From: a virus
Length of the DNA: 55,489 bases
Virus record (IMG/VR): IMGVR_UViG_3300040801_000321
Span: 1-55,489 of that record
Reading direction: 5' to 3' (one strand)
Position numbers and translations under genes: made by a program. Shown piece by piece: positions 32,572 through 46,359 of this stretch. Below the pieces are notes generated by a model. It was not told where the DNA came from and ran no database searches. It saw only the letters and a list, made by a program, of their open reading frames with translations. Each line of letters starts with the position of its first letter. The stretch's first letter is position 1.

Positions 32572-33516
32572 TTACCTCGCATCATACAGTTTTGCAAAAT
32601 ACCCATCAGAGTTGATGAGACGTTCTATCGCCGCGATGTCGTCATAAACGTCATCCAGCAGAATGTTGCGCCAAGTACCAAACCGGCCAAGGCTATAAAT
32701 TCTCAGCCGCATCGTCATGTCCAAAATGAACTGACGCCGCACACGCTCGTCCACCGGCGCAATCTTCCCATACTTCTGATCCTGCCGTTCTAGAAACTGC
32801 ATCTGGTTTCGCTTCATGCCGAAGGAATAGCAGACCTCGCCAATCTCAATGCCGTCAGGGTCGATGTCGTCAACAGACTCAACAATCAGATCCTCGCCAG
32901 TCAGCGTTGCGCGGTAAACCGGCAAATCAGGCTCAGGATAGTAAATTGTTTGATAGACCGCGCAATCAGGAACGTGGAAACGGTGGACGATGATTTTCTT
33001 GTGCTGAAAACTAGAGTCGAAACTTAGCTCATGGTTGGTGATTGATGCGAGAATGTGCATCGGAAGAGTGCTGACGATTGCGTTGATAGACCTATCAAAG
33101 CGAGACGCACCAGCATGGATGAAGCTGTCGTCAATGTAGCCGACCTTCGTGCCCCACCAGATTCGCACGCCCAGTTTCTCGATCAGCCGCAGGTGCAGAT
33201 CGTCCGGGGCAACGTACCGAACAGCAGTGTCAAGGTTCCAGATGCTGCGGTCAAGAATCTTGCCATTACACTTCGCGCTGTATTGGTTCGCGAAACGGAT
33301 GTCTGGCCGGACAAAATTTGAGCCTGTCCAGATCCCCTTGCGGACGGTTACTTGCTTGAATGGTATGCCGACTGCCTTGCCAATCTCGTTGCTGCGGAAC
33401 CGAAGTACAGCGCGATGCTGTGGGCGCTTGAACTCTGTACTCGCTTCGATGACTATTGCTGATGGGTTGATGATGCCGGCGATACAGCCTGCAAGCCCTG
33501 CTCCCAAGATGAACAT
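32572..33516 (-). CDS. FAD/NAD(P)-binding Rossmann protein (UDP-galactopyranose mutase-like?)
   Basis: The N-terminus MFILGAGLAGCIAG is a GxGxxG dinucleotide-binding fold. The C-terminal LGRFGTWRNILLDDVYDDI resembles the UGM GRLxxYxYxxMD motif. Confidence 0.45.
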   Translation of the reverse strand: MFILGAGLAGCIAGIINPSAIVIEASTEFKRPQHRAVLRFRSNEIGKAVGIPFKQVTVRKGIWTGSNFVRPDIRFANQYSAKCNGKILDRSIWNLDTAVRYVAPDDLHLRLIEKLGVRIWWGTKVGYIDDSFIHAGASRFDRSINAIVSTLPMHILASITNHELSFDSSFQHKKIIVHRFHVPDCAVYQTIYYPEPDLPVYRATLTGEDLIVESVDDIDPDGIEIGEVCYSFGMKRNQMQFLERQDQKYGKIAPVDERVRRQFILDMTMRLRIYSLGRFGTWRNILLDDVYDDIAAIERLINSDGYFAKLYDAR

Positions 33517-33723
33517 TTACTTCCCCTTTGTAAGTGGCAGCACATCAATCAGCCGCCAGTGATTGCTACGTGGCCTGTTCATGAGCTTGCGGTAGTGGAC
33601 GCCGCACAGCAGCAGTTCGCGCCCGTCCCGATTCTTCAGCTTGTACTTCCACCGGTTCATGCAAGGCTGATCCCCTCGCAGCAGATCTTCGCACAGGTCA
33701 TCCACTTGTCTTCTCCAGCACAT
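33517..33723 (-). CDS. Small basic Cys-containing protein
   Basis: The ORF is open to 33774 and the internal ATG (MCWRRQ...) is preferred. It contains LLCGVHYRKL. Confidence 0.4.
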   Translation of the reverse strand: MCWRRQVDDLCEDLLRGDQPCMNRWKYKLKNRDGRELLLCGVHYRKLMNRPRSNHWRLIDVLPLTKGK

Positions 33724-34243
33724 CCCGGCAGATATCACTAATGGACCGGCGCAACGATGAAGCAGCCGAAGCACTCAGCGCCCTGCTGTGACACTTCCCG
33801 GGGCCAGTGGTTCCGAACTCCGCGAGCACAGTGATTTGTTCTACCGCGCAACGTAGCAGCTTGATCTGCTGCTCTTTCGAGCACTTGTGCTTGGTCAGGT
33901 ATACAGGGCCAATATCCTCCCCGGACGATCCCGCCAGCAAGCGCATCACGTCCGGGTCAGCAAGCAGTGCCTCGCGCCACTCGTCCAGCTTGTCCTCGCG
34001 CTCAGGCATGACCATTGGACCAACCCTGCGCAGCTCTTTATCATTATCCGCAATGACGATGACCGGACACAAGGCTGTGGGCCCGAGACCAGCATTGTCC
34101 ATGATGTTGTGCTGGTGCCAGTTCTCTATGATCTCATCAGGACTCGCCCCGGGTATCCTGTGAAAAAGATGGCAGTCGTACATTCCATAGACAGAGACTC
34201 GATCTGGAACTGGCACATCCGTGCCGCAGGCATCACACTTCAT
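33698..34243 (-). CDS. Hypothetical protein (first gene of the middle operon)
   Basis: The start is refined to MKCDACGTD, preceded by tatGGAGttgtgATG. The longer listed ORF translates the repeat tract as PYPYPYPY. Confidence 0.65.
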   Translation of the reverse strand: MKCDACGTDVPVPDRVSVYGMYDCHLFHRIPGASPDEIIENWHQHNIMDNAGLGPTALCPVIVIADNDKELRRVGPMVMPEREDKLDEWREALLADPDVMRLLAGSSGEDIGPVYLTKHKCSKEQQIKLLRCAVEQITVLAEFGTTGPGKCHSRALSASAASSLRRSISDICRDVLEKTSG

Positions 34244-34253
34244 CACAACTCCA

Positions 34254-34278
34254 TAGGGGTAGGGGTAGGGGTAGGGGA
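34254..34278 (+). repeat. (GGGGTA)4 tract: canonical G-quadruplex motif on the plus (template) strand
   Basis: The sequence is taGGGGtaGGGGtaGGGGtaGGGGa. On the mRNA-sense strand it reads (CCCCUA)4 and ends 3 nt before the GGAG Shine-Dalgarno of 33698..34243. Confidence 0.9.
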
Positions 34279-34320
34279 TACTGTAACGTGTCAGCTGTGC
34301 GAGTAAAAGGATTTGCACAC

Positions 34321-34358
34321 AAAAAAAAATGGGGCCAACCTCGAAAGGCTGGCCCCAA
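34321..34358 (-). terminator. Rho-independent terminator
   Basis: The minus strand reads UGGGGCCAGCC-UUUCGA-GGUUGGCCCCA, an 11-bp stem, followed by U9. It starts 8 nt after the DUF932 stop. Confidence 0.9.
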
Positions 34359-34365
34359 GTCATAT

Positions 34366-35355
34366 TCATGCGACAAGCTGTTCTGCTTCCTCCCAAGCAC
34401 GAGCCTTCACAAGACGATTGCCACCGAACCACGCATTGTTCATGCGCGTTGATGTGGTGCGTCCGGACTCGTGATCAGTGAAGCGTGTGACTGCGTTAAC
34501 CGCACCCCACAGCGTACCGTTCGCAGACTTCAGCTCTGCGCCCGGACCTGCGGAATACAGCGTCAGCATTCGCTTGATCTTCTGGCTGTTGGCGGTGATG
34601 TCGTGCTCTGTGACACCCTCTTCGGTGTCTAGGCCGATGGCCTTGAAGAAAAAGCGCACAGCATCATCTTCGCTGATCTTCTGCTTCGCCATCTTGGCGG
34701 CTTTCTTCTCAAAGGCGCCAAACGAATCACCAATCAGCCCCAGCTCTTCCTTGATCAGCGTAGCATCAAACTCGCGTGTGTGCGGAACCCGGATGCGTGA
34801 GCTTGGACGCTCAGCAACGGAAAACTCCAGCGTGTTCTGGCACACTACCCGGACAGATGTGAACTGCCCGATTGTTGCGAGTGACTTGTCGCAGGAAGTT
34901 GCCAACAGCAAGTAAGGCTGGATCAGATCCTGACCCTGAATGCGCGCTTCATACTTCGCACGCGCCAGTGCCCAGACCTTCCGGCCACCATCGAGTGAGC
35001 CCGCAGTCTCAATGCGGAAGTCGCCCGATGCCCCAACAAGCTCCCGGTAAAATTCCAGAATCTCGTTGGGCTGGACAACGTTGTAACCATCCGACACAAC
35101 GCTCAAAGGCATCTGCGTGTCGTCGCGGTAAATGACCATGCGGTCACTGTACTCAACAATGTCCATTTTCTTCGCTGTGGGCTTGCTGATGTCGAAGAGT
35201 ACTGGCGCCTGCACGAGATTGAAATTCAACCCCGCAGCAATGCGCCACTCTTCGATGGTTGAGTCTGGGTCAATTGACTGGCCCAGACCATGCCACGGAA
35301 CGTCGCCAACATATGCCATGTTAGCACGCTCATTAGAAAAGTCGATCATGTGCAT
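34366..35355 (-). CDS. DUF932 family protein (phage/plasmid-like protein)
   Basis: The N-terminus ...MAYVGDVPWHGLGQSI... and the 329-aa size are typical of DUF932. RBS is GAGG. Confidence 0.7.
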   Translation of the reverse strand: MHMIDFSNERANMAYVGDVPWHGLGQSIDPDSTIEEWRIAAGLNFNLVQAPVLFDISKPTAKKMDIVEYSDRMVIYRDDTQMPLSVVSDGYNVVQPNEILEFYRELVGASGDFRIETAGSLDGGRKVWALARAKYEARIQGQDLIQPYLLLATSCDKSLATIGQFTSVRVVCQNTLEFSVAERPSSRIRVPHTREFDATLIKEELGLIGDSFGAFEKKAAKMAKQKISEDDAVRFFFKAIGLDTEEGVTEHDITANSQKIKRMLTLYSAGPGAELKSANGTLWGAVNAVTRFTDHESGRTTSTRMNNAWFGGNRLVKARAWEEAEQLVA

Positions 35356-35376
35356 AATTCACCTCACTCTTATCGT

Positions 35377-35448
35377 TGGGATGCCTCATCGGGCTGTGGG
35401 CTCCCACCCCGCAGCGACATGGCCACCCGAAGGCAGCCATGTTTCGGC
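35377..35448 (-). ncRNA. Hammerhead ribozyme-like element, type II topology, core variant (HHR-12)
   Basis: Minus-strand RNA: GCC-GAAAC-AUGGCUGCC-UUCG-GGUGGCCAU-GUC|GCUGCGGG-GUGGGAG-CCCACAGC-CCGAUGA-GGC-A-UCCCA.
- Stem III is 11 bp with a UUCG loop.
- Stem II is 3 bp (GGC/GCC).
- Loop I UGGGA can pair with the UCCCA tail.
- Core position 4 is C, not U.
- The predicted scissile C is complementary to plus-strand 35416. Confidence 0.6.
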
Positions 35449-35453
35449 TCGTC

Positions 35454-35657
35454 CTATCCTCGCAGACCACAATGCATGTACGCACCCACGAGTATCCTTG
35501 CTTCGTGGTACGTCACGCCGAACTCATCCTCAAGATACGGGCCAGCACCAAACATGTTGGTTTCGCCCGAGTCCCGAAGATTGTCCATGAAGTCGGCAAC
35601 CTCATCAATGCTGAGCCCGACTTCGTCACACACGATCCTCGCTTTCTCATAGTCCAT
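35454..35657 (-). CDS. Hypothetical small protein
   Basis: 67 aa (MDYEKARIVCDEV...). It starts 1 nt after the upstream stop. Confidence 0.55.
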   Translation of the reverse strand: MDYEKARIVCDEVGLSIDEVADFMDNLRDSGETNMFGAGPYLEDEFGVTYHEARILVGAYMHCGLRG

Positions 35658-35658
35658 G

Positions 35659-35877
35659 TTACACCTCCCGCTCTTCGACCACCCAGCCGAAGGATTCCCA
35701 ACGGCCATGGGTTGGTGCGAATTTGTTTATCGTCGTGAGCATGACCCCACGCTTCTGCAGCCCGAAGATTTCGGTTGCGTCTTGCGTGTAGGTGGGCCAG
35801 CACTGATCGTACCGCAGCATGTCTACTGGGAACGGACCTTTGCCTGTGGCGATGAACGTTTTCACTTCACACCTCAT
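35659..35877 (-). CDS. Hypothetical small protein (FIATGKGPFPVDMLRYDQCWP motif)
   Basis: The internal ATG at 35877 or GTG at 35868 overlaps the upstream stop. The motif recurs in phage and plasmid small proteins as far as I recall. Confidence 0.5.
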   Translation of the reverse strand: MRCEVKTFIATGKGPFPVDMLRYDQCWPTYTQDATEIFGLQKRGVMLTTINKFAPTHGRWESFGWVVEEREV

Positions 35878-36124
35878 TGCTGTAAACAGCGAACGGCAAC
35901 AACAGCGCAGCAGCACGTACCATTTCGCCATGGTTGCTGCCGAGCGAGTAGAAGATTGCGTGTGCGCGGTTGCTGTAATCGTCTAGCCTACCAGCATCCG
36001 CGCACAGCTCAACAACTTCGTCGCTGCTGTAGTCGCGTGGGGGAAGATCTGGAGCGATGTCGTTCCAGATCCGGTCAATGGCTCGCGCCAAATAATCAAG
36101 ATCGTCCATAGCAGGTGCGGTCAT
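35867..36124 (-). CDS. Hypothetical small acidic protein
   Basis: The start is refined to MTAPAMDDLDYL. GGGAG lies 6 nt upstream, and the start is 4 nt after the previous stop. Confidence 0.55.
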   Translation of the reverse strand: MTAPAMDDLDYLARAIDRIWNDIAPDLPPRDYSSDEVVELCADAGRLDDYSNRAHAIFYSLGSNHGEMVRAAALLLPFAVYSNEV

Positions 36125-36128
36125 GACG

Positions 36129-36395
36129 TTACTCCCAGTCATCAGGGTACATTCCACCAGCAACCGGATCGTCTGGCCCGGGCAGGTGGCTCAGGCTCAC
36201 TTGCGGATCTGTGTATGCGTTGGACGGCTGCGCATGCGGATACTTGGCCTGTGCTAGTTCAAGAGTCTCAAAGCTGTCAAGCCAGTTCCTGCGCGGCTGC
36301 CCAGCCAGCACGCTGTGTGGCGGGTACTCGTCCCAACCGAACACAACCCACGAGCCATTGCGCATACTCGCAGTGTACATTTCATATTGCTTCAT
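36129..36395 (-). CDS. Hypothetical small protein
   Basis: 88 aa (MKQYEMYTASMRNG...), preceded by GGAGAUAGAUAUG. The listed 189-aa ORF is an artefactual extension through HHR-1. Confidence 0.65.
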   Translation of the reverse strand: MKQYEMYTASMRNGSWVVFGWDEYPPHSVLAGQPRRNWLDSFETLELAQAKYPHAQPSNAYTDPQVSLSHLPGPDDPVAGGMYPDDWE

Positions 36396-36409
36396 ATCTA
36401 TCTCCAATC

Positions 36410-36481
36410 GGCTTGTCTCATCAGTGTACCAGTAGCCAACTGATACAGACACTGCCGAGTTGCCCCGGCAGCGTTTCGACG
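36410..36481 (-). ncRNA. Hammerhead ribozyme, type II topology (HHR-1)
   Basis: Minus-strand RNA: GUC-GAAAC-GCUGCCG-GGGCAACU-CGGCAGU-GUC|UGUAUCAG-UUGGCUA-CUGGUACA-CUGAUGA-GAC-A-AGCC. Loop I GGCU pairs with the AGCC tail. Coordinates are +/-1 because, in my reading, the printed sequence and the ORF track differ by one base between about 36361 and 36720. Confidence 0.8.
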
Positions 36482-36874
36482 TTACGAAAGTTGTTGCAGC
36501 GTCATGCGCTCTGCTTTGTCCTTGAGCCGCGTGACTCGCTCGTTGACGAACTTGGTCCGGGACTTCGTGGCGACGTTCGTGTGCAGCCCGATGTGACTGC
36601 GAAGATCGTCCGCAGTCGGCCACCACACCTTGTCGTTCTCTCCGTCCCAAACATGCCAGTAAGATTCGCCCAGCACCTTCATAAAGTTCAGGCGCCACGC
36701 CATCTCAATGACGTCTTTTTCGTCTTTGAGCCCGTTCATGTCAATGAGCAGGCAGGCCCAAATCAGAGCATTGGTCGATTCCTTGAGCATACCCTTGTGG
36801 GTTGTCTCGTCCCAATCCTCAAAGCAGGTTTTCTGCCAGTCGTTGATCTCACTCAGTGACCAATCTAATGACAT
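36482..36874 (-). CDS. Hypothetical protein (Trp-rich)
   Basis: 130 aa. The stop abuts HHR-1 and the gene is preceded by a stem-loop rather than a ribozyme. Confidence 0.65.
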   Translation of the reverse strand: MSLDWSLSEINDWQKTCFEDWDETTHKGMLKESTNALIWACLLIDMNGLKDEKDVIEMAWRLNFMKVLGESYWHVWDGENDKVWWPTADDLRSHIGLHTNVATKSRTKFVNERVTRLKDKAERMTLQQLS

Positions 36875-36895
36875 CGTAGTGCTCCCATCAAAGTT

Positions 36896-36921
36896 GGTGC
36901 CCGGGACGATTCCCGGGCACC
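36896..36921 (-). other. Intercistronic 11-bp stem-loop (no U-tract)
   Basis: The minus strand reads GGUGCCCGGGA-AUCG-UCCCGGGCACC, between 36934..37521 and 36482..36874. This is the only junction in the array without a hammerhead. Confidence 0.6.
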
Positions 36922-36933
36922 GTGTACGCAGAC

Positions 36934-37521
36934 CTAACTCTCAATCACCAGATAGGCTGCCTTGGGGTCGATCAGCTTCTGCAGGACGCCCATAGCAGAA
37001 CCGCGAGAGCTGATGCCCTCAAGTGTCTGCAGCTCCGCGATAAAGTCCTCAACCGGCATCTTGTTGCCGCGTTGCTGCTTCAGCAGCTCCACAGCAGACC
37101 ACCGCAGTGAGCCCTCACGCATCTTCATCAGTGGCTCCGGGTTAACCCGGACGACACCAACAACCGCATTGCGCGTGCGCCCACGAGACTTTTTCACATC
37201 GCCCTTTTCAGGTGGCGTCTTGCCCTTCGGCTTGCTGCCCTTCGGCGCGTCAACCTCCGGCCACTCAGCACCGTCCAGCGCAGCAGCAGTGCGCGTCGCA
37301 GCGTCTGCTGCGGTTGCGAACTTTTTGATGTCTGCTGTCCCGGGGATGCTGTTGTAGATCGAGACGAGTGCCTTGCCCTTAAATGCGGTGGCCACTTGTT
37401 CAGCGGTGCCGACATAGAAGTCAAAGCTGACGCTCTCAGCGTATGCCTCAGCGTCCGCAATCGTCGGGAACTTCCCAACAACCACGCTCTTGTCCACGTT
37501 CACTAAGTATGATGTGCTCAT
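36934..37521 (-). CDS. Hypothetical protein with a basic Lys/Pro-rich linker
   Basis: 195 aa with an ATG start about 24 nt after HHR-2. The middle segment is PKGSKPKGKTPPEKGDVKKSRGR. Confidence 0.65.
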   Translation of the reverse strand: MSTSYLVNVDKSVVVGKFPTIADAEAYAESVSFDFYVGTAEQVATAFKGKALVSIYNSIPGTADIKKFATAADAATRTAAALDGAEWPEVDAPKGSKPKGKTPPEKGDVKKSRGRTRNAVVGVVRVNPEPLMKMREGSLRWSAVELLKQQRGNKMPVEDFIAELQTLEGISSRGSAMGVLQKLIDPKAAYLVIES

Positions 37522-37544
37522 CTATATTCTCCTGTCGTTATGTT

Positions 37545-37613
37545 GTGTCTGTCTCATCAGTGCCCGGATGACACGTTCCGGGCAGACACGCTCCGGGTGG
37601 AGCGTGTTTCGAC
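37545..37613 (-). ncRNA. Hammerhead ribozyme, type II topology (HHR-2)
   Basis: Minus-strand RNA: GUC-GAAAC-ACGCUCC-ACCC-GGAGCGU-GUC|UGCCCGGA-ACGUGUCA-UCCGGGCA-CUGAUGA-GAC-A-GACAC. Here loop I GUGUC pairs with a different tail, GACAC, which is a compensated pseudoknot. The scissile C is opposite 37585. Confidence 0.8.
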
Positions 37614-37614
37614 G

Positions 37615-37956
37615 TTATGAAAGTTCACGCAGCAGCTCTGCGCGCAGCTCAGCATTCGGATCGAATGCGCTGATGGTGTGCTTGTCCTTGTCTTCGTTCA
37701 AGGCTTCCAGCATACCGTCATACGCTTCCATGAAGTGCCTGCGGAAGTTCTTGGCGAACTCATCAGGCATCTTCCGGGCCAGCTCCGGACATCCCTCAGC
37801 GGTCATGTCCAGCGCCAGAAGCGCGCACGCAGAGCTCATCAGCTTCTGCGCAGCCTCAGCGACCTCCAGCGCATTGCGCGGAGAATCGACAGCGAGCATC
37901 AACAATGCTTTGGAAGTGGCATTGATGAGTTCCTTGGCTTCAATCTTTTCTTTCAT
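37615..37956 (-). CDS. Hypothetical small helical protein
   Basis: 113 aa (MKEKIEAKELINAT...), preceded by GGGAGAUGAUCAUG. The stop is 1 nt from HHR-2. Confidence 0.6.
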   Translation of the reverse strand: MKEKIEAKELINATSKALLMLAVDSPRNALEVAEAAQKLMSSACALLALDMTAEGCPELARKMPDEFAKNFRRHFMEAYDGMLEALNEDKDKHTISAFDPNAELRAELLRELS

Positions 37957-37971
37957 GATCATCTCCCAATC

Positions 37972-38035
37972 GGCTTGTCTCATCAGCGCCCGGGTAGCCA
38001 ACCCGGAACGGACGCGCCCGCAGGCGCGTTTCGAC
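37972..38035 (-). ncRNA. Hammerhead ribozyme, type II topology (HHR-3)
   Basis: Minus-strand RNA: GUC-GAAAC-GCGCC-UGCG-GGCGC-GUC|CGUUCCGGG-UUGGCUA-CCCGGGCG-CUGAUGA-GAC-A-AGCC. The scissile C is opposite 38011. Confidence 0.85.
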
Positions 38036-38036
38036 G

Positions 38037-38426
38037 TTATGACTCTTGCGGCCTCATCTGCAGCTTCAGCGTTCCGAGCAGGCCACGATGCTTCATCCAT
38101 TCGTGCACCTCTTTCTCGCCACCATGCGACGCCATGGGCACGTAGTTGTAGATGACGTGGGCGTAACCGCGAACCGCTGCGGCATTCGACTCGTCAGCGT
38201 GACGGAACGTCTGCAGCAGATTGTTCTCGAACACATTGAGCAGGAAGCCACCCATGGGGCGACCATCCATCACATAGGCCAACAGCTCATTCCGCATGTA
38301 GCCCGGAATATCCTGCTCACGCATGCCGGCAGCAACCTTCGCATAGACGGCTTCTGCGACTTCGCGCATGCTCCCATTCAGGTCGGTGTAAGCAGCGCCA
38401 TATTCCCGTTCAAGTTCAACGTTCAT
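38037..38426 (-). CDS. Hypothetical protein
   Basis: 129 aa (MNVELEREYGAAYTDLNG...), preceded by GGAGAUUGAUAUG. The listed 205-aa ORF runs through HHR-4. Confidence 0.65.
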   Translation of the reverse strand: MNVELEREYGAAYTDLNGSMREVAEAVYAKVAAGMREQDIPGYMRNELLAYVMDGRPMGGFLLNVFENNLLQTFRHADESNAAAVRGYAHVIYNYVPMASHGGEKEVHEWMKHRGLLGTLKLQMRPQES

Positions 38427-38440
38427 ATCAATCTCCAATC

Positions 38441-38504
38441 GGTTTGTCTCATCAGCGCCCGGGTAACCACCCCGGAACGGACGCGCCCGCAGGCGCGTTT
38501 CGAC
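38441..38504 (-). ncRNA. Hammerhead ribozyme, type II topology (HHR-4)
   Basis: Minus-strand RNA: GUC-GAAAC-GCGCC-UGCG-GGCGC-GUC|CGUUCCGGG-GUGGUUA-CCCGGGCG-CUGAUGA-GAC-A-AACC. Loop GGUU pairs with tail AACC, which covaries with the GGCU/AGCC pairing in other copies. The scissile C is opposite 38480. Confidence 0.85.
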
Positions 38505-38505
38505 A

Positions 38506-38706
38506 TCAAAAGAAATGTGTGCGGGATTCGCCGCAACGAGTGCATTGAATCTCTTCACCGCCATCTTCCGGATACACCACGCACACTTCCCAACGGTGGC
38601 CGCGAATCCGGCAGACCAACCGCTCAAACTTGTAAGCGATGAAGTCTGCCACACGCAACCGCATTGTTGGGTATGGCGTGTGCAGGAAGTCTTGCCACGT
38701 TAGCAT
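38506..38706 (-). CDS. Hypothetical small protein (C-terminal CxxC)
   Basis: 66 aa with a 7-nt overlap onto the upstream gene. The stop is 1 nt from HHR-4. Confidence 0.5.
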   Translation of the reverse strand: MLTWQDFLHTPYPTMRLRVADFIAYKFERLVCRIRGHRWEVCVVYPEDGGEEIQCTRCGESRTHFF

Positions 38707-38900
38707 GGGGCACCTCGCTCGATCTCAATGTGAAGTATTTCGTGCTGCTCCAGAAGATCGACAACCGCGCATTGAAGTGTGCGGCTATCTTCCAGAGCAT
38801 CAGCAGCAGCCCGCAGCACTTCCGGAAAACTCCGGAACGTTGCTGCTTGCTTGTTGCCGTTAACACGCCAGATGCGGAGCTCAAACGTATCTTCGTTCAT
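38700..38900 (-). CDS. Hypothetical small protein
   Basis: 66 aa with an ATGA overlap onto the stop of 38897..39184. Confidence 0.5.
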   Translation of the reverse strand: MNEDTFELRIWRVNGNKQAATFRSFPEVLRAAADALEDSRTLQCAVVDLLEQHEILHIEIERGAPC

Positions 38901-39184
38901 GCTCTACTCTTCCCGTCGCCCAGCATCACGCGTGTGGCGCGGTTGATCTCGCGCTGTTGCGGAGAGCAAGCCCGTTCCAGACGTTCTTGCTGATAGCGGA
39001 TGTAAGCATCCACATCAGGCTGGACTTCCTCGATCAGCTTCCTGAGCTGATTAAGTTCTGAGTTGAGCTCACGAGCGTATCCGAGTGCGTGCGACTCCAG
39101 CCCGCCACCGCAGCGTTCTGCTTCGATGTACTTGGACTCGATCCGCGACATGGCATTCTTCAGCCAGTGAATTTGTGTCTTCAT
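38897..39184 (-). CDS. Hypothetical coiled-coil protein
   Basis: 95 aa (MKTQIHWLKNAMSRIESKY...), preceded by GGAGACGAAGAUG. Confidence 0.6.
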   Translation of the reverse strand: MKTQIHWLKNAMSRIESKYIEAERCGGGLESHALGYARELNSELNQLRKLIEEVQPDVDAYIRYQQERLERACSPQQREINRATRVMLGDGKSRA

Positions 39185-39198
39185 CTTCGTCTCCAATC

Positions 39199-39263
39199 GG
39201 CTTGTCTCATCAGCGCCCGGGTAGCCAACCCGGAACGGACGGCAGCACTGCTGCCGTTTCGAC
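39199..39263 (-). ncRNA. Hammerhead ribozyme, type II topology (HHR-5)
   Basis: Minus-strand RNA: GUC-GAAAC-GGCAG-CAGUG-CUGCC-GUC|CGUUCCGGG-UUGGCUA-CCCGGGCG-CUGAUGA-GAC-A-AGCC. The stem III sequence differs from HHR-3 and HHR-4 but stays paired. The scissile C is opposite 39238. Confidence 0.85.
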
Positions 39264-39264
39264 T

Positions 39265-39462
39265 CTAGAATTCAACTGACCTGCCCGTCTCTTCCCAGCA
39301 CGTCAGGTCAAACTTGAAGAACCTGCCCTGCCCGCAAAGCAGCGTTGCCATTTCGCGTGCCTTTGTGGTGGCTTCCTCGCGATTCACGTGACCGAACTCA
39401 ACGCGGCAGTAGTGCTTGACGCGGGTGTCGGTGATCTCTGCGATGTTCAGTGAGTATCTCAT
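39265..39462 (-). CDS. Hypothetical small protein
   Basis: 65 aa (MRYSLNIAEITDTRVKHY...), preceded by GGAGAUGAUAAUG. Confidence 0.55.
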   Translation of the reverse strand: MRYSLNIAEITDTRVKHYCRVEFGHVNREEATTKAREMATLLCGQGRFFKFDLTCWEETGRSVEF

Positions 39463-39476
39463 TATCATCTCCAATC

Positions 39477-39539
39477 GGTTTGTCTCATCAGTGATGAAGT
39501 AACCAGCTTCACCAGACGCGCCCGCAGGCGCGTTTCGAC
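39477..39539 (-). ncRNA. Hammerhead ribozyme, type II topology (HHR-6)
   Basis: Minus-strand RNA: GUC-GAAAC-GCGCC-UGCG-GGCGC-GUC|UGGUGAAG-CUGGUUA-CUUCAUCA-CUGAUGA-GAC-A-AACC. The scissile C is opposite 39515. Confidence 0.85.
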
Positions 39540-39540
39540 T

Positions 39541-39822
39541 TCACGAGTCATCCTCTTCAGCATCAGCATTTGCTGCCTTGATCTGATCGTCGTGCTCGCC
39601 TTTGTCGAGGATTCGATCAACGATGTCCTCTTCGGTGCCGTTGCACTCTTCGTTCACCAGCAAAGCAATCTGTGCGCACATCGAGACCAGCTCAATGGCT
39701 GCGCGCTCTTCGTCGCGGGACAGCTTGCCTTTGCCTTCGACAAAAAGAGTCTCAAGCGCCAGCTGGCACTCGCCAAGATCAGTCAGCGTATTCTGGAACC
39801 GGCAGTAGCTCATATTGCTCAT
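39541..39822 (-). CDS. Hypothetical acidic protein (MSNMSYCRFQNT... N-terminus)
   Basis: 93 aa, preceded by GGAGAUGAUAAUG, with an acidic C-terminus. Confidence 0.6.
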   Translation of the reverse strand: MSNMSYCRFQNTLTDLGECQLALETLFVEGKGKLSRDEERAAIELVSMCAQIALLVNEECNGTEEDIVDRILDKGEHDDQIKAANADAEEDDS

Positions 39823-39836
39823 TATCATCTCCAATC

Positions 39837-39902
39837 GGTTTGTCTCATCAGCGCCCGGGTAACCAGCCCGGAACGGACGGCAGCACGTGCTGCCGTTTCG
39901 AC
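39837..39902 (-). ncRNA. Hammerhead ribozyme, type II topology (HHR-7)
   Basis: Minus-strand RNA: GUC-GAAAC-GGCAGC-ACGU-GCUGCC-GUC|CGUUCCGGG-CUGGUUA-CCCGGGCG-CUGAUGA-GAC-A-AACC. The stop codon of the upstream gene overlaps the first ribozyme nucleotide. The scissile C is opposite 39876. Confidence 0.85.
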
Positions 39903-40189
39903 TATGACCGCACCTTGAATGCGGTGAGTGGATATGCCCAGCCCGAAGTCGGGCTGCCACGCTCCGGGACAGCATACACTTCAAACTCAGCAGGCGCGTA
40001 ACTCTTCAGCATCGAGTTGCGACTGCCGGGATTGTATGTGCGTCCCGGAACCTTGATCACGACCACATCATTGGAGTCTTGGATGAGCTTGGTGCCGTTT
40101 GGCGTTTCCCATCCCCTGCGAATGACGTTATCGGGATCTGACCAGTCCATGTAGACTCTGGATGTGCTTGTGACTTTGTTAACGTACAT
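39902..40189 (-). CDS. Hypothetical small protein
   Basis: 95 aa (MYVNKVTSTSRVYMDW...), preceded by GGAGAUGAACAUG. Confidence 0.6.
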   Translation of the reverse strand: MYVNKVTSTSRVYMDWSDPDNVIRRGWETPNGTKLIQDSNDVVVIKVPGRTYNPGSRNSMLKSYAPAEFEVYAVPERGSPTSGWAYPLTAFKVRS

Positions 40190-40203
40190 GTTCATCTCCA
40201 ATC

Positions 40204-40267
40204 GGCTTGTCTCATCAGCGCCCGGGTAGCCATCCCGGAACGGACGCCACCGCAGTGGCGTTTCGAC
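40204..40267 (-). ncRNA. Hammerhead ribozyme, type II topology (HHR-8)
   Basis: Minus-strand RNA: GUC-GAAAC-GCCAC-UGCG-GUGGC-GUC|CGUUCCGGG-AUGGCUA-CCCGGGCG-CUGAUGA-GAC-A-AGCC. The scissile C is opposite 40243. Confidence 0.85.
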
Positions 40268-40268
40268 A

Positions 40269-40520
40269 TCAGCTCGTCACAACCTCGCGCCAGTCGGTCC
40301 CGGCCAAGATCTGCTCAGCTTGCTTGCGGCTGATCTGGCCATAAAGCGAGTGCTGGAACGTCACTCGCGTCTTGTCGTTGGAAGTGAAGTGCTTCACCTC
40401 AACCGACACGCCATGCTCGCCTTGGACCACCGTGGAATATCCCGGCTTACCTCTCATGTACAGGTAGCACCTGTCTTCCTGTGCGCGAGCCTTATTGATA
40501 AGTTGTAAGGTTCTGTTCAT
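40269..40520 (-). CDS. Hypothetical small protein
   Basis: 83 aa (MNRTLQLINKARAQEDR...), preceded by GGAGAUUGAUAUG. Confidence 0.6.
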   Translation of the reverse strand: MNRTLQLINKARAQEDRCYLYMRGKPGYSTVVQGEHGVSVEVKHFTSNDKTRVTFQHSLYGQISRKQAEQILAGTDWREVVTS

Positions 40521-40534
40521 ATCAATCTCCAATC

Positions 40535-40600
40535 GGTTTGTCTCATCAGTGGCGAAGTAACCAGCTTCACCAGACGCGCCCTCCATGGGCGCGTTTCGAC
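40535..40600 (-). ncRNA. Hammerhead ribozyme, type II topology (HHR-9)
   Basis: Minus-strand RNA: GUC-GAAAC-GCGCCC-AUGGA-GGGCGC-GUC|UGGUGAAG-CUGGUUA-CUUCGCCA-CUGAUGA-GAC-A-AACC. The scissile C is opposite 40573. Confidence 0.85.
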
Positions 40601-40601
40601 G

Positions 40602-40916
40602 TTAGTGGATCGAAACAAGGTCAGCGGCTTCCATCGTCCGGAGCAGCCACTTGGCGCGGCCAACCGGATTCGCTGCGCCATTCCTCTCAAGCGCAACCGC
40701 GATACGCTTCAGTGCGTAGGCAGTCTTGACCCTGTTCTTGGCATCTGCGTGCTGGCGAAGAGTCGTGATGGCGATGTCGCGCTCAGAACCTTCGAACACG
40801 TAGCGGTCCTCAAGTGCCTTCTCATGAAGCACCACAGAACCATCATTCCAATTGCGGCGGTTGTAGGTCTTGCCGTAGTTGGTGCCATGTGCCGTCTTGT
40901 TAGTACGTGCGTTCAT
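40602..40916 (-). CDS. Hypothetical protein
   Basis: 104 aa (MNARTNKTAHGTNYGK...), preceded by GGAGAACUGAGAUG. Confidence 0.65.
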   Translation of the reverse strand: MNARTNKTAHGTNYGKTYNRRNWNDGSVVLHEKALEDRYVFEGSERDIAITTLRQHADAKNRVKTAYALKRIAVALERNGAANPVGRAKWLLRTMEAADLVSIH

Positions 40917-40938
40917 CTCAGTTCTCCATTTAGTTATC

Positions 40939-41001
40939 GGCTTGTCTCATCAGTGTAACGGGAGCCACCCGTTACAGACGCGCCCGCAGGCGCGTTTCGA
41001 C
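40939..41001 (-). ncRNA. Hammerhead ribozyme, type II topology (HHR-10)
   Basis: Minus-strand RNA: GUC-GAAAC-GCGCC-UGCG-GGCGC-GUC|UGUAACGGG-UGGCU-CCCGUUACA-CUGAUGA-GAC-A-AGCC. The scissile C is opposite 40977. Confidence 0.85.
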
Positions 41002-41002
41002 A

Positions 41003-41203
41003 TCAGCTGACCTTGTGGCTGCGAAGTGCCTTGTATGCGGCATCGCGAGCTGCGACCAGCGCAGCTTCCAAACGTTCCACATCTTCCATGCTCCAATCTT
41101 CATCGGAACAGTTCAGCTCATCCGTCATTCTGCTATCAAAAAGTTCCTCGAACATCTCATCAAGCAGACCAGAAGCAGCAATCTTGATTTGGCGCTTGTT
41201 CAT
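41003..41203 (-). CDS. Hypothetical small acidic protein
   Basis: 66 aa (MNKRQIKIAASGLLDEMFEE...), preceded by GGAGAUUAUCAUG. It is the first cistron of the array. Confidence 0.55.
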   Translation of the reverse strand: MNKRQIKIAASGLLDEMFEELFDSRMTDELNCSDEDWSMEDVERLEAALVAARDAAYKALRSHKVS

Positions 41204-41217
41204 GATAATCTCCAATC

Positions 41218-41297
41218 GGCTTGTCTCATCGGTGCCGTGGTAGCCGACCACGACAGACACCCAACGTCCCTGTGGGACGGCTTACGGGTGTTTCGAC
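41218..41297 (-). ncRNA. Hammerhead ribozyme-like element, type II topology, core variant (HHR-11)
   Basis: Minus-strand RNA: GUC-GAAAC-ACCC-[GUAAGCC GUCCC-ACA-GGGAC GUU]-GGGU-GUC|UGUCGUGG-UCGGCUA-CCACGGCA-CCGAUGA-GAC-A-AGCC. Core position 4 is C instead of U. Stem III carries an insert that is also found as a repeat at 41489..41512. Confidence 0.6.
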
Positions 41298-41515
41298 ATT
41301 TGGAGTAGATGAATATGACTTATCAGCAGGCAGCGTCTATCATGGCGCATCCCTGTGGGATGACTTATGCCGTTCTGTCGCGACATGGGGCTGTCGCGAA
41401 CTCTGAACATCTGACGGCTTACGTTGTGGAGTTGACCTGCTGTTGTTGGATACCGTTCTGCGGTCTTGCCAAATTTGGAGCTGGTGTTAACGTCCCTGTG
41501 GGACGGCTTACAACA
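41263..41515. repeat. Iteron-like degenerate direct repeats (CCCTGTGGGA-YG-RCTTAY)
   Basis: - Full copies: caacgtccctgtgggacggcttac at 41263..41286 and aacgtccctgtgggacggcttac at 41489..41512.
- Variant: catccctgtgggatgacttatgcc at about 41348..41372.
- Partial copies: acggcttac at 41414..41422 and tgacttatcag at about 41316.
- Also present: tgtcgcga twice, at 41376 and 41391. Confidence 0.6.
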
Positions 41516-41519
41516 GGCA

Positions 41520-41750
41520 CAGCTTCGCCTTTGGCTTCTCAGATTGGGCAACCGCAGGTTCTTGCTCGGTGCCTCCTTGAGCCCCTAGCTTTTCGGGAGT
41601 CCTTCCGGTTAGCGGTCTTGGCTTTCGCCTCACGAGTGGTCCCGGTTGGGCCGAACTCTCCAGTTTCCAGTGCCGCCTCCCGGCGTGATCCCCTTGGGGG
41701 AAACTGGTCGCCACCTCTAGGTCGGTGACTTGGCGGTTTTCTCCCCGCCT
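41520..41750. other. GC-rich, densely self-complementary noncoding segment (candidate structured RNA or origin element)
   Basis: No convincing ORF. Many local helices can be drawn, for example CCAGUUUCC...GGAAACUGG (9 bp) enclosing GCCG-CCUCC-CGGC, as well as GGCGG-UUUUCUCC-CCGCC and GAGU-GGUCCCGGUUGGGCC-GAACUC. The strand is unknown. Confidence 0.3.
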
Positions 41751-41853
41751 GCAGATAGTGTAGGTGATTTGTGAACTAAAGTAAAGGATAGTTTTGCTTT
41801 GATTTTCAACACCTTACAAGCCATTGTTCACTGTTTAGGCCAAAAATCTGTGG

Positions 41854-41884
41854 TTTTTCGGGGTTTTCGGGCACTTTCGGGCAG
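41854..41884. repeat. Three phased TTTCGGG repeats (about 10-11 bp period)
   Basis: The sequence is tttttcgggg ttttcgggcac tttcgggcag, which has helical phasing suggestive of intrinsically bent DNA. It lies between ATTGTTCA (about 41823) and TGAACAAT (about 41899). Confidence 0.5.
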
Positions 41885-41934
41885 AAAGCGTGGCACCTGA
41901 ACAATCCATTTCACAAGGTAATTCCCAGCATATC

Positions 41935-43476
41935 CTAAGATCCAGTGCGTGCAACCCCTATATTTGCAGCATAAAACTGTGCCATGTTGGCTAGGGGATC
42001 GTAAAAGTACTGCCACTGGGGTGTGACTACGTGGAGACGTTCCAGCGCCCGGGTCACAGCGACGTAGAACACGCGATGCTCGTCGTCAGACAATCCATAC
42101 TTCAACGCCAGATACGTCGCACGCGTCACATCAGTCATCACGATCACGTTCTGGCACTCGCCACCTTTGGCGCCATGGATTGTGCTCAGCTCGATGCGTG
42201 GCTTCAATCCTTCCAGCTTCCCGTAACGCTGGTGGACGCGCAGCAGGTACTGTGTCTGCTTCGGCTGGATGCCCCGGAACACGTGGTATGGATTCTCTGG
42301 TAGTTGGATCTGTAAACGCTTCAGGTTGTACTCGCCACTGCGTGTGACGATAAACGGTGGACGCAATCTGCTGAGGTGGAGGAATTGTCGAATCTTCTCT
42401 CCACGCAACGTCTCACCGCGCAGCAACCGGAAGTAAGCATCCACCGCCTGCGCCTCTGCGAGCTGATAGGCTGGACGGTGCCGGAAGATATACGGCAAGC
42501 CCCAAGTCCGCAAGCGACCAATAAAAGACTTCACCATGGGCGTGGTAAAGTTCCGGGACAGCACAAGCCACTCTTGATCTTCGTCATCCCACAACGGCAG
42601 AGACTCGTGACAGTTGTAGAAAATCACATCACCTATCTCCGGGCGAGGATTCCAGTGCTTGTAACGTCTGTTCTCGATCTTGTTGGCGATTGTGAGTGCG
42701 ACTTCCTGTGGCCGAATCGGAACGCGATATGACTGGCCTAGCACTTCGACGTTACCGGGAAGCTGGATGAGACGATTCACATCAGCACCGTTCCATCGGT
42801 AGATTGCTTGGTCATCGTCGCCGGCAACATAGATGCGCGATGCGCTGCGGAAAGAGTTAGCAATCATCTTCCACTGCTGTACCGTCAGATCCTGCGCTTC
42901 GTCAATAATCGCAACATCAACGTCCAGCTCAATATCGCGCCGGTTATATTCAATGATCATGTCGGTGTAGTCGAATATGCCTTGGTCATCTTTGTACTTG
43001 GCATACTCTGCTGCGAAACGCTTCAGACGTATGACGTTGGTCTGAAGGTTCTGCTCCCGGAGGATCGTGCTCATCGGCACTTCCCGGATGCGTGACTGTG
43101 TGTAGATGAACTCTAGCAGATCGTCGCTGGGCTCCTGGGTCCACCGCGACTCCTGCCGGAAGTTGCCTGTGAGACGGAAGCCAGTGCGCTCCTGGAACTC
43201 TTCACGATGGACTCGCGTAAACAACATGTCACGCGAAATGCCGAGTGCCTTGAACGCTGTACTGTGTAGCGTCCGGAAGTATGGCATGTCGATCCGGCGA
43301 ACATTCAGCTGTGACCGCACCCGGGCCACACCCTCATCAACTGCCTTGTTTGTGAACGATACGAACGCGATGCGCTCAGGTGATATGCCCAGCTCCAGCT
43401 CGCGCTGGATGATGTTGAGTAGCCTTGTGGTCTTGCCCGTCCCGGGTGGCCCAAGGATGATATGAATCTCCGGCAC
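41935..43476 (-). CDS. UvrD/Rep-like superfamily 1 DNA helicase
   Basis: Motifs present: Walker A GPPGTGKTT, IIDEAQD, VAGDDDQAIYRWNGA, STIHGAKGGE and YVAVTRALERL. Confidence 0.9.
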   Translation of the reverse strand: MPEIHIILGPPGTGKTTRLLNIIQRELELGISPERIAFVSFTNKAVDEGVARVRSQLNVRRIDMPYFRTLHSTAFKALGISRDMLFTRVHREEFQERTGFRLTGNFRQESRWTQEPSDDLLEFIYTQSRIREVPMSTILREQNLQTNVIRLKRFAAEYAKYKDDQGIFDYTDMIIEYNRRDIELDVDVAIIDEAQDLTVQQWKMIANSFRSASRIYVAGDDDQAIYRWNGADVNRLIQLPGNVEVLGQSYRVPIRPQEVALTIANKIENRRYKHWNPRPEIGDVIFYNCHESLPLWDDEDQEWLVLSRNFTTPMVKSFIGRLRTWGLPYIFRHRPAYQLAEAQAVDAYFRLLRGETLRGEKIRQFLHLSRLRPPFIVTRSGEYNLKRLQIQLPENPYHVFRGIQPKQTQYLLRVHQRYGKLEGLKPRIELSTIHGAKGGECQNVIVMTDVTRATYLALKYGLSDDEHRVFYVAVTRALERLHVVTPQWQYFYDPLANMAQFYAANIGVARTGS

Positions 43477-44957
43477 TAGAATTGCTCCGCGTCATCTTCG
43501 CTCTTGGTGTTGGTGAAGGTTGGTACGCTCCAGATCTCATACTCATCGCCATAGATTGGCTTGCGATGAATCTTTACCACGTCGCGCAACGCCTTGTGTA
43601 TGTCTGCCTTCGTCGCCTTCATGCCACGCTCGCGGTTGTAGGCCTGCAAAAATCGCATCGGCTCAAAGTAAGTATCCGTGCCATTCTTCCAAGCCCCATC
43701 CTCAATCACTTCCTCGATCTGCCTTGCTGGCGCTCTCATAGTACAGAACACCCGCAGGAAGTCTCGAATGGGTGCGCGATGTGATGTGTCTGTTCCCGTC
43801 TCAACAATCTCGGCACGCGCTGCCATATCACTCATCATGATCTCAAACTTTTTCGACGGGATGGTGAGGATGTAGATTGCGCCTTGGTCGATCACCGTCT
43901 TGCGGAATCTTGTCTGGCTTACCATATCCTCACTTGTGATCTCAACGCGCATGCCGTTTACTTCGGCAATATACAGCACAGGATCAACATTCACGCGCAA
44001 TGGGTTCTTGATCTCGATCCCAAGCTCATCCAGCGCAGCGTCCATGCCGATGCCAAAACGTTTCTTCAGGCACTCGTGCCGCTGGCACACTGGCGCGATA
44101 GGCTGCTCACGGCATCTGTAGCTGTACTCTTTCTTGCCGATGTTCTTGATGACTTGCTTGACTTCGCTGTCTGGAAGTGGATCGCCCATATACAGCTGAT
44201 TCATTTCAACCAGCTTGTCTTGGTAATCCTCGCCCCAACGCTTCCGGCAATACACCCCGAGATTAAACAGCCCAAGGTTCCGGGAACCGTCCGGGAAACC
44301 TCCCGCTGCGAGTGTCACGAGACACGGTGGAGCCTCGCGTAGCAGCTCCGGGGATTCGGGCTCAGCCTCTAGATCGTCCGGAAGAACAGCGCAGCTTATA
44401 GCGTGTGCTATAAAGTCCTGTGCGCTGAGTTGCTGCCCGTCCACGATGGCATACTGGACTGTGTCCTTGCCCTCGAAATAAGGCATGTTGATCCAGTTCC
44501 CGGTATCGTCGTCATTGATCAGCCGGTCCTGCTTCGGGAATATCTCCACACCGCCATAGCCCAGCACAGCAGAGTAGTGCGCGAGACGTTCGCGCACCTT
44601 GTTGGCTGCTGCTGGCTTTTTCAAAAACAAGTAGCAGTGAGCACCGCCACTCTTACTCCGGCACAGGACCAAAGGCATCTTGTGCTTTTTAATGGCCTGC
44701 TCTAGCTTCAGCAGGTCCAAGTCATAATCGTCCACATCAATCGCACCAAACACGCACGTCCCGTTCTGGCGTATTGGCACGATGCCTAGAAACTGATCCC
44801 CGGATAAATGACGCTCCCACAATTCAGTTGTTACATCTGACTTGATTGTTCGCCCTTGGCCGGTGCGCTTTTTGCCCTTTACTTCCTTGATCGTGTAAGT
44901 GCCGTATGCGCGCCGAAGTCCGGAGAATAATGTGTCAAACTTCTCAGCCAATGACAT
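43476..44957 (-). CDS. Primase-polymerase (archaeo-eukaryotic primase superfamily)
   Basis: FGAIDVDDYD supplies the DxD metal site and CRSKSGGAHCYLF the sGGxH motif. The start is refined to MSLAEKFDT, preceded by GGAGAAUACCAGAUG. Confidence 0.7.
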   Translation of the reverse strand: MSLAEKFDTLFSGLRRAYGTYTIKEVKGKKRTGQGRTIKSDVTTELWERHLSGDQFLGIVPIRQNGTCVFGAIDVDDYDLDLLKLEQAIKKHKMPLVLCRSKSGGAHCYLFLKKPAAANKVRERLAHYSAVLGYGGVEIFPKQDRLINDDDTGNWINMPYFEGKDTVQYAIVDGQQLSAQDFIAHAISCAVLPDDLEAEPESPELLREAPPCLVTLAAGGFPDGSRNLGLFNLGVYCRKRWGEDYQDKLVEMNQLYMGDPLPDSEVKQVIKNIGKKEYSYRCREQPIAPVCQRHECLKKRFGIGMDAALDELGIEIKNPLRVNVDPVLYIAEVNGMRVEITSEDMVSQTRFRKTVIDQGAIYILTIPSKKFEIMMSDMAARAEIVETGTDTSHRAPIRDFLRVFCTMRAPARQIEEVIEDGAWKNGTDTYFEPMRFLQAYNRERGMKATKADIHKALRDVVKIHRKPIYGDEYEIWSVPTFTNTKSEDDAEQF

Positions 44958-45805: not shown

Positions 45806-45813
45806 TTTTCCTC

Positions 45814-46359
45814 TCACTTTATCTTAGCAACGTTACGAACATACACACCAAACAGATCCGGAGGCACAGGCCTGCCGGATTCTGATTGCTCTTTCACAAA
45901 CGCCTTGAGCGTCTGCGGGTGCACCAGAGTCTTGTCTGAAAATTCGTAGCCCTGATCCATCAGGTAATCCGCGAGTGCGGCGGCACGCTCGTCCTCAGAG
46001 CGAGTAAAGTTCATCTGCAGTTGGTGCTTGATCAGATCTGCGAAACCGTTTTTGCGCAGCCACTCAAACGCCTGCTCCTGCAGCTTCCCGGGAATGCTGG
46101 CGTGGTATGTGGTCTCGATGGAAACTTGCGAACCGTCTGCGAGCGAGATTTTCACCATACCCAACTCATTCATCGCTTCCGGCAGCTGATCCTCCACGAC
46201 CACCTTCAGCTGCGCATTGAGTGCTGACAGCTCTTCGGAACGCTGCGCGATTTCAGCCTGCAATTCCCGGGCCTTTCGCGTCAGCTTAGAAACTAGGCTG
46301 AGGTCATCGCCTGATATCTGCTCAATATCAGACTCAAAATCAATCTGTCCAGTCATCAT
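45814..46359 (-). CDS. Hypothetical protein with an N-terminal coiled coil
   Basis: About 181 aa. GGAGG lies just upstream of tandem ATGs. No motif recognised. Confidence 0.5.
   Translation of the reverse strand: MMTGQIDFESDIEQISGDDLSLVSKLTRKARELQAEIAQRSEELSALNAQLKVVVEDQLPEAMNELGMVKISLADGSQVSIETTYHASIPGKLQEQAFEWLRKNGFADLIKHQLQMNFTRSEDERAAALADYLMDQGYEFSDKTLVHPQTLKAFVKEQSESGRPVPPDLFGVYVRNVAKIK

Follow-up and report, generated by a model that had tools for sequence, protein, structure and literature searches.

The presence of putative self-cleaving ribozymes at most of the gene junctions of a single phage operon raises the question of what such a series would do to the RNA that carries it. The operon is located on a viral sequence of 55,489 nt (IMG/VR record IMGVR_UViG_3300040801_000321, positions 1 to 55,489; the entire stretch is referred to as the window), whose minus strand carries twelve complete type II hammerhead motifs between positions 41297 and 35377. 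They lie on the coding strand, mostly between small genes that are all transcribed in the same direction. The arrangement suggests, with a probability of roughly two in three, that the operon contains twelve working, pseudoknot-stabilized type II hammerheads on its sense strand, which would cut one transcription unit into insulated pieces.

The motifs were detected with two methods. The Rfam model of type II hammerheads (RF02276, Hammerhead_II), which has a gathering score of 37 bits, yielded eight matches at or above that score in a scan of the whole window (37.4-49.6 bits, all on the minus strand). A permissive Rfam scan of positions 33000-44000 added matches at 39195-39264 (36.2 bits), 35375-35449 (32.7 bits), and 41214-41298 (27.9 bits), and the twelfth copy, at 36406-36481, scored 25.0 bits (E = 0.0022) when searched alone. 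All twelve copies align across model positions 1-66 of RF02276. A descriptor of our own (stem II, GAAA, stem III hairpin, UH, stem I hairpin, CYGAUGA, stem II) was applied to both strands of the 55-kb window and retrieved exactly the same twelve elements and no others; a version that left N7 unspecified and demanded eight or more stem pairs produced five matches in 4.06 Mb of unrelated control loci. The sequence CTGATGAGNC occurs 11 times, compared to 0.76 expected occurrences. Other classes of ribozymes (twister, pistol, and hatchet) have no match in the window at Rfam gathering scores. A preliminary description of the locus, based on the sequence alone, had reported the same twelve type II hammerheads on the minus strand, which both the Rfam model and the descriptor confirm. 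It had also expected 10-12 of them to exceed the gathering score; eight do so, but the other four remain below it, although they are full-length matches.

The catalytic core is strongly conserved. GAAA, the A15.1-U16.1 pair, and the GUC cleavage triplet are present in all twelve copies, and the order of the segments (stem II 5' strand, GAAA, stem III hairpin, C17, stem I hairpin, C(U/C)GAUGA, stem II 3' strand) is that of the type II permutation throughout, with stem II open and stems I and III closed by loops, as had been proposed. The complete core that the preliminary description attributed to the elements is thus present as far as GAAA, the closing pair of stem III, and GUC are concerned, but the strand CUGAUGA is found in only ten of the copies. 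The first and the last copy, here numbered HH1 and HH12 in the direction of transcription, carry CCGAUGA instead (41223-41229 and 35383-35389, respectively), which corresponds to a U4C substitution. This is a natural variant for which a markedly lower activity in vitro has been reported, and it is rare, occurring in 4 of 154 descriptor matches in loci selected for the presence of hammerheads.

The helices are maintained by compensatory changes, in agreement with the preliminary description. In an alignment that was fitted to the structure by hand in hammerhead-numbered segments, padded with N, and returned ungapped by MAFFT, 99.6% of the 285 cells are standard pairs, and 18 of the 27 pairs have changed on both sides. 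None of 500 shuffles attained the observed values, and sliding the 3' partners by 1-3 columns lowered the paired fraction to 32-41%. The cells of stems II and III are always paired, those of stem I in 98.9% of the cases, and 14 of the 22 stem pairs are altered on both sides. The copies do not represent twelve independent samples, because four have the same stem III (GCGCC-UGCG-GGCGC) and five the same stem I, which leaves about eight versions per stem; stem II is identical (GUC/GAC) in eleven copies. Minimum-free-energy folds recovered stems III and I in all copies except HH12, for which only stem III was recovered.

A further helix, which had been overlooked in the preliminary description, connects loop I with the region just downstream of the ribozyme. 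In all twelve copies, five nucleotides of loop I pair with positions 2-6 of the tail immediately 3' of stem II; pairing in this pseudoknot is complete (100%), and four of its five pairs co-vary. It occurs in five versions (UGGCU/AGCCG, CGGCU/AGCCG, UGGUU/AACCG, GUGUC/GACAC, and UGGGA/UCCCA). The pseudoknot between loop I and the 3' tail is required for fast cleavage at physiological Mg2+ concentrations (Perreault et al. 2011, PMC3088659) and is the strongest single sign of working ribozymes.

The individual copies differ in their details. HH1 (41217..41297, minus strand, like all others) is located upstream of g1, with C17 at 41256; it combines U4C with a hairpin module of 23 nt in the loop of stem III and a score of 27.9 bits. 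It is followed by six copies at consecutive junctions: HH2 between g1 and g2 (40938..41001; 44.3 bits; C17 at 40977), HH3 between g2 and g3 (40534..40600; 37.4 bits; C17 at 40573), HH4 between g3 and g4 (40203..40267; 38.1 bits; C17 at 40243), HH5 between g4 and g5 (39836..39902; 39.6 bits; C17 at 39876), HH6 between g5 and g6 (39476..39539; 40.2 bits; C17 at 39515), and HH7 between g6 and g7 (39198..39263; 36.2 bits, slightly under the gathering score; C17 at 39238). The next three copies are HH8 between g9 and g10 (38440..38504; 47.2 bits; C17 at 38480), HH9 between g10 and g11 (37971..38035; 39.3 bits; C17 at 38011), and HH10 between g11 and g12 (37545..37613; 49.6 bits; C17 at 37585), the latter with the wholly different pseudoknot sequence GUGUC/GACAC. 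HH11, between g13 and g14 (36409..36480; 25.0 bits; C17 at 36448), has a long stem III of 9 bp. HH12, between g17 and g18 (35377..35448; 32.7 bits; C17 at 35416), has the U4C core, a stem II of GCC/GGC, a UUCG loop on a stem III of 11 bp, and UGGGA/UCCCA as its pseudoknot. The derived cleavage sites agree within 1 nt with those listed in the preliminary description.

The position of the ribozymes relative to the genes is almost fixed. A stop codon is followed, usually after 1 nt, by the ribozyme (58-75 nt) and then, usually after 19 nt that include a GGAG ribosome-binding site, by the next ATG. The gap between stop codon and ribozyme is 1 nt in nine of eleven cases, and in HH5 the two overlap by one base, such that the G of the TAG stop codon is at the same time the 5' nucleotide of stem II. 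The distance from the ribozyme to the ATG is 19 nt in eight of the twelve copies, and this spacer holds both the tail of the pseudoknot and the GGAG motif. The genes g1-g17 (35454..41203, minus strand) are open reading frames of 65-195 amino acids, each with a GGAG-type ribosome-binding site, and searches of Pfam and PHROGs assigned no function to any of them. The final gene of the unit, g18 (34366..35355, minus strand), directly follows HH12 and encodes a DUF932 protein of the TIGR03299 type found in phages and plasmids (PF06067, E = 3e-56; phrog_1221). Downstream of g18, an intrinsic terminator with a 12-bp stem and a subsequent T9 (34320..34357, minus strand; also given as 34357-34330) is the site at which the transcription unit is predicted to end; this terminator is strong, and the array itself contains no strong one. 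On the other side, a non-coding leader of about 640 nt (41298..41934, minus strand; fold z-score -2.25) separates the stop codon of a helicase gene from HH1 and contains a weak, AT-rich, promoter-like stretch near 41752-41786 (TTTACT-17-TACACT). The placement of the ribozymes between the cistrons of one co-directional unit, on its coding strand and ahead of a strong terminator, corroborates the preliminary description in this respect.

Not every junction carries a ribozyme, however, and the claim that they delimit essentially every cistron went too far. Hammerheads are present at 11 of the 17 junctions among g1-g18, with one additional copy 5' of g1; the junctions without them are those of overlapping or abutting genes, except for the junction of g12 and g13. 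Here, the sequence reveals a GC-rich hairpin of 11 bp (GGUGCCCGGGA-AUCG-UCCCGGGCACC; 36896..36921, minus strand) in the place of the hammerhead, which is not followed by a run of U and may represent an RNase III site or a 3' stabilizer. Successive C17 residues are spaced by 279, 404, 330, 367, 361, 277, 758, 469, 426, 1137, and 1032 nt, and the final piece, from the last C17 to the terminator, comprises about 1.09 kb. Cleavage at all sites is predicted to release a leader fragment and 12 pieces, nine of which would be monocistronic (g1-g6, g10, g11, and g18), as the preliminary description had envisaged for the entire operon, but the remaining three would be polycistronic (g7-9, g12-13, and g14-17). 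The description of the RNA as an early transcript has no basis in the sequence, which provides no timing signal; the operon is situated within the replication module.

These features are consistent with the following course of events. A single transcription unit of about 7.4 kb would begin in the leader, near 41750, and end at the terminator (34330). Because stems III and I are local hairpins, each junction could fold once it has been made, and the two stems would form as the junction is transcribed. Once stem II (3 bp) and the pairing of loop I with the tail had completed the core, self-cleavage would take place 3' of C17. Owing to the type II topology, the ribozyme would be divided between both cleavage products: the upstream piece would end in the GC-rich hairpin of stem III followed by GUC with a 2',3'-cyclic phosphate, and the downstream piece would carry its 5'-OH on the first nucleotide of stem I, which is base-paired, and would be capped by the pseudoknot, with its GGAG ribosome-binding site free. 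The 5' untranslated region of the downstream pieces would be standardized to about 52-63 nt before the ATG. Each cassette may thus gain its own defined and nuclease-resistant ends, which would uncouple the decay and translation of unrelated accessory genes from those of their neighbors without the aid of a host RNase. The U4C copies at both ends of the array would probably be slower to cut. The recurrence of the same junctions between genes that are mutually unrelated supports such a role.

There is published precedent for cleavage among natural type II hammerheads. Pseudoknotted representatives cleave rapidly at 0.5 mM Mg2+, and the triple arrangements of three bacteria (Agrobacterium tumefaciens, where they surround ardA, Clostridium scindens, and Azorhizobium caulinodans) were all cleaved during transcription of native fragments of about 2 kb (PMC3088659); also in D. 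vulgaris, three type II hammerheads cleave in vivo (PMC8782182). The copies in the window share with the RF02276 family the core, the permuted topology with capped stems I and III and a short, open stem II, the pseudoknot between loop I and the tail (5 bp in the present case), and the phage context, but differ from it by two C4 residues, five bulged U residues in stem I, an insert of 23 nt in loop III of HH1, and four scores below the cut-off. Perreault et al. (2011, PMC3088659) described type II hammerheads, their pseudoknot, and clusters that flank single genes in prophages, and proposed a role in mRNA processing. Like the present array, these clusters are located on the coding strand between small, non-conserved open reading frames in phage DNA, and the hypothesis is the same, namely the conversion of long phage transcripts to mRNAs of the length of a single gene or operon. 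The clusters tested comprised three copies, whereas the array in the window comprises twelve copies in 5.9 kb, all of type II and of a single pseudoknotted subfamily, at near-fixed distances from stop and start codons. The processing interpretation is therefore not new, and the array is a very large example of a known phage arrangement. A 2019 review repeats the mRNA-processing idea as unproven, and the function of self-cleaving ribozymes in bacteria and phages has been called an open question in reviews (PMC6155905; PMC6765202).

Two further systems resemble the proposed mechanism in part. The early polycistronic mRNA of phage T7 is cut at structured intercistronic sites into mRNAs of gene length, whose ends retain a hairpin that protects them, and this would be the outcome also in the window; the T7 system, reportedly described by Dunn and Studier, depends on a host enzyme, RNase III, whereas the RNA of the array would cleave itself and leave a 5'-OH and a 2',3'-cyclic phosphate. 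In synthetic biology, Lou et al. (2012) and Qi et al. (2012) are said to have described RiboJ ribozyme insulators and Csy4-based operon processing. Insulators of the RiboJ type likewise employ a self-cleaving hammerhead just before the ribosome-binding site, which standardizes the 5' untranslated region and makes expression independent of the upstream sequence, but they are engineered, single elements of type III (derived from sTRSV), whereas the array is a natural series of twelve type II copies that would place a hairpin also on the upstream product. With twelve ribozymes set at fixed distances from stop and start codons, genes that are unrelated to one another, a single leader, and a single terminator, the operon provides a clean natural test-bed for the processing model. 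The series also offers two natural variants with a probably slow U4C core and twelve compatible insulators with a pseudoknot that could be used in synthetic operons, and the prevalence of the type II permutation in phage arrays may be due to the hairpin that cleavage would leave on both products.

Several observations weigh against the processing of the transcript into insulated pieces. Cleavage of these twelve copies is a prediction from their sequence; four of them fall below the gathering threshold, stem I of five contains a bulged U, and HH1 and HH12 carry a substitution reported to lower activity in vitro considerably. A stop codon at a distance of 1 nt would cause the terminating ribosome to block the folding of the ribozyme transiently. 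No close relatives that would reveal conservation of the array were found in the collections searched. The effect of a 5'-OH on the stability of an RNA depends on the host: in Bacillus subtilis, RNase J1 degrades the glmS cleavage product that bears a 5'-OH. By analogy, cleavage could destabilize rather than stabilize the pieces.

The similarity of the junctions extends beyond the ribozymes, which raises the unlikely alternative that the unit of about 90 nt formed by ribozyme, tail, ribosome-binding site, and ATG is chiefly a DNA-level linker for the homologous recombination of accessory-gene cassettes, with the ribozyme activity being secondary or merely carried along. Unrelated genes are separated by junctions that share long identical tracts, which include the ribosome-binding site and the spacer and reach a few bases beyond the ATG; HH5 and HH6 have ...GGAGAUGAUAAUGAG in common, and HH3 and HH8 share ...GGAGAUUGAUAUGAAC. 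The stems are mosaic, with version A of stem III occurring together with three versions of stem I and version x of stem I together with three versions of stem III, which fits gene conversion between junction copies and leaves room for the shuffling of cassettes at the DNA level. Moreover, homologs of g10, g14, and g18 are found beside hammerheads in unrelated contigs. A linker function, however, explains neither the strict retention of the catalytic core nor the compensatory changes in three helices and the co-variation of the pseudoknot, and it is compatible with ribozyme activity, so that the same junctions could serve both recombination and processing. The origin of the array by tandem duplication of units that each consist of a gene and a ribozyme was also considered; since an all-against-all BLASTP comparison identified no paralogs among g1-g20, the array has not grown in this manner.

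The leader upstream of HH1 contains repeats of its own. The sequence RTAAGYCRTC is present in five clustered copies (four exact, one with a mismatch) that span the leader and HH1 on the minus strand (41263-41511). The 23-nt module GUAAGCCGUCCCACAGGGACGUU, which forms a hairpin of 6 bp with an ACA loop, occurs three times, once in the stem III loop of HH1 and twice in the leader, and one of the copies shows a compensatory change from G-C to A-U (CGUCCC/GGGACG to CAUCCC/GGGAUG). Both elements may represent a protein-binding site, iterons, or a processing signal. The notion that hairpins of 5 bp and 3 nt in the leader are promoters of the type used by the virion RNA polymerase of phage N4 was dropped, because the protein of 2920 amino acids encoded in the window is a homolog of tail fiber J and not a virion RNA polymerase.

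The properties of HH1 and of the two U4C copies bear on a second alternative, in which cleavage would be conditional and serve regulation, gated by translation of the upstream open reading frame, whose stop codon lies at a distance of 1 nt, by divalent ions, or by a protein that recognizes the hairpin inserted into loop III of HH1. The presumably slow U4C copies at the ends would then set the level at which RNA still attached to the leader or to g18 persists. The U4C substitution, although rare overall, affects the first and last copy in the window and the last two copies of an independent array of eleven hammerheads (L117; see below); the module of HH1 recurs in the leader with a compensatory change; and core variants with altered ion preference are known from phages, such as A6C in Bcep176 (PMC7151607). 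Yet, no ligand-binding or switch structure is evident, the ten consensus cores and the stable local hairpins favor fast, constitutive cutting, and U4C may simply be tolerated drift, which makes a conditional mechanism quite improbable.

It is very improbable that the copies do not cleave in vivo at all and are relics of hammerheads that persist as structured intergenic repeats, acting as hairpins that pause or protect the RNA or as sites for host RNases. The scores of four copies below the gathering threshold, the core substitution in two of them, and the plain GC-rich hairpin that occupies the junction of g12 and g13 without a ribozyme would fit such a decay, but relics would not be expected to hold GAAA, the A15.1-U16.1 pair, GUC, and (C/U)GAUGA in twelve of twelve copies while their helices compensate, and comparable natural type II hammerheads cleave both in vitro and in vivo. 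Hardly credible is the re-joining of the pieces between neighboring ribozymes into spliced or circular RNAs, by the reverse hammerhead reaction or a host ligase of the RtcB type, a possibility raised by Perreault et al. (PMC3088659) that would turn the array into a factory of circular, exonuclease-proof phage messages if each piece re-formed a complete, nicked hammerhead and were re-ligated: the stem II shared by eleven of the twelve copies would indeed allow the 5' and 3' half-ribozymes of an excised piece to pair, with the 5'-OH and the cyclic phosphate brought into proximity, but the loop to be closed by a stem of 3 bp would measure 200-1000 nt, spliced or circular products were sought by the same authors without success, and no RNA ligase was found among the open reading frames of the window scanned against Pfam (some had a PHROGs scan only).

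The proposed cleavage of the transcript into separate pieces gains support from the occurrence of similar arrays in other phages. A scan of IMG/VR with a generic type II pattern returned at least 120 stretches; among the 120 matches listed, the number of hammerheads on the best strand of each locus is zero in 46, one in 52, two in 14, three in one, four in three, and five, six, seven, and eleven in one locus each. Large arrays are present in L117 (IMGVR_UViG_3300038412_000035), with eleven copies by the descriptor and eight by Rfam at E < 0.05, in L128 (IMGVR_UViG_3300046664_000025), with nine copies in 5.0 kb by Rfam, and in L008 (IMGVR_UViG_3300037508_001314), with six copies by Rfam and two more by the descriptor. 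The twelve copies in the window form the largest array among the matches listed, but since arrays of 11, 9, and 8 copies exist in IMG/VR, it is not different in kind. The exceptional density claimed in the preliminary description was therefore overstated, given that these arrays have the same spacing and that clusters in prophages had been published already in 2011. All three arrays resemble that of the window in the succession of stop codon, ribozyme, ribosome-binding site, and ATG and in having one ribozyme per 450-560 nt (approximately), but their ribozyme sequences fall into other subfamilies and the phages are unrelated. Within the collection of papers searched, there was no description of these three arrays and no paper on arrays of the size found in the window. 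In L128, two type II hammerheads are located back to back (5049-5185, minus strand), about 4 nt apart and with no gene between them.

The array of L117 shares a further feature with that of the window: it ends with two U4C copies (412-471 and 175-234) that are followed by a DUF932 gene (1-166). A DUF932 gene with hammerheads on both sides is present also in another locus (L323, 9907-11001). Nevertheless, a role of DUF932 as a regular partner of such arrays was rejected: hammerheads accompany only 1 of the best 80 DUF932 relatives in IMG/VR, so that the link is occasional and follows no rule. A short viral contig of 4,894 nt (L299; IMGVR_UViG_3300040796_000015) encodes a protein with 100% identity to that of g18, preceded by HH12, and apparently represents a fragment of this phage, whose full genome was present in none of the collections searched. 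An unrelated viral contig of 105 kb (L016) contains a group I intron at 5086-5307 (RF00028, 56.4 bits).

The phage itself has no near relative among the deposited phages. Neither the operon nor positions 1-25000 of the window have a match by megablast among 50,697 deposited phage records, and the exact junction motif CTGATGAGACAARCCGATTGGAGA has none in IMG/VR or the JGI metagenomes. The sequence identity of the portal protein reaches 41% at most, with that of an uncultured siphovirus, and about 40% with those of siphophages of Xanthomonas and Stenotrophomonas; MW202621, the deposited phage whose portal is the closest (41%), lacks hammerheads. Relatives of the helicase upstream of the array, recovered from viral, genome, and metagenome collections, are at most 35% identical, and a single descriptor match was found, in 1 of 240 loci.

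The window represents a genome segment of a tailed phage, with nearly all genes on the minus strand. The structural genes comprise those of a tail fiber J homolog (2920 amino acids), a tape measure protein, a tail tube protein, the major capsid protein, the portal, and the large terminase. In the tail fiber J-like protein (768-9530), the match to phrog_31 covers residues 69-1616, leaving the C-terminal 1300 residues unmatched. The replication genes encode a polymerase of the DNA polymerase III alpha type, ThyX, a primase, and two helicases, and the array operon lies in the midst of this module, with a helicase gene (41935-43476) on one side and the genes of ThyX and the DNA polymerase on the other. 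The regions 26730-29489 and 45011-46368 encode a bacterial-type DNA polymerase III alpha subunit (PF07733, PF17657) together with proteins similar to gp33 and gp34 of Pam3.

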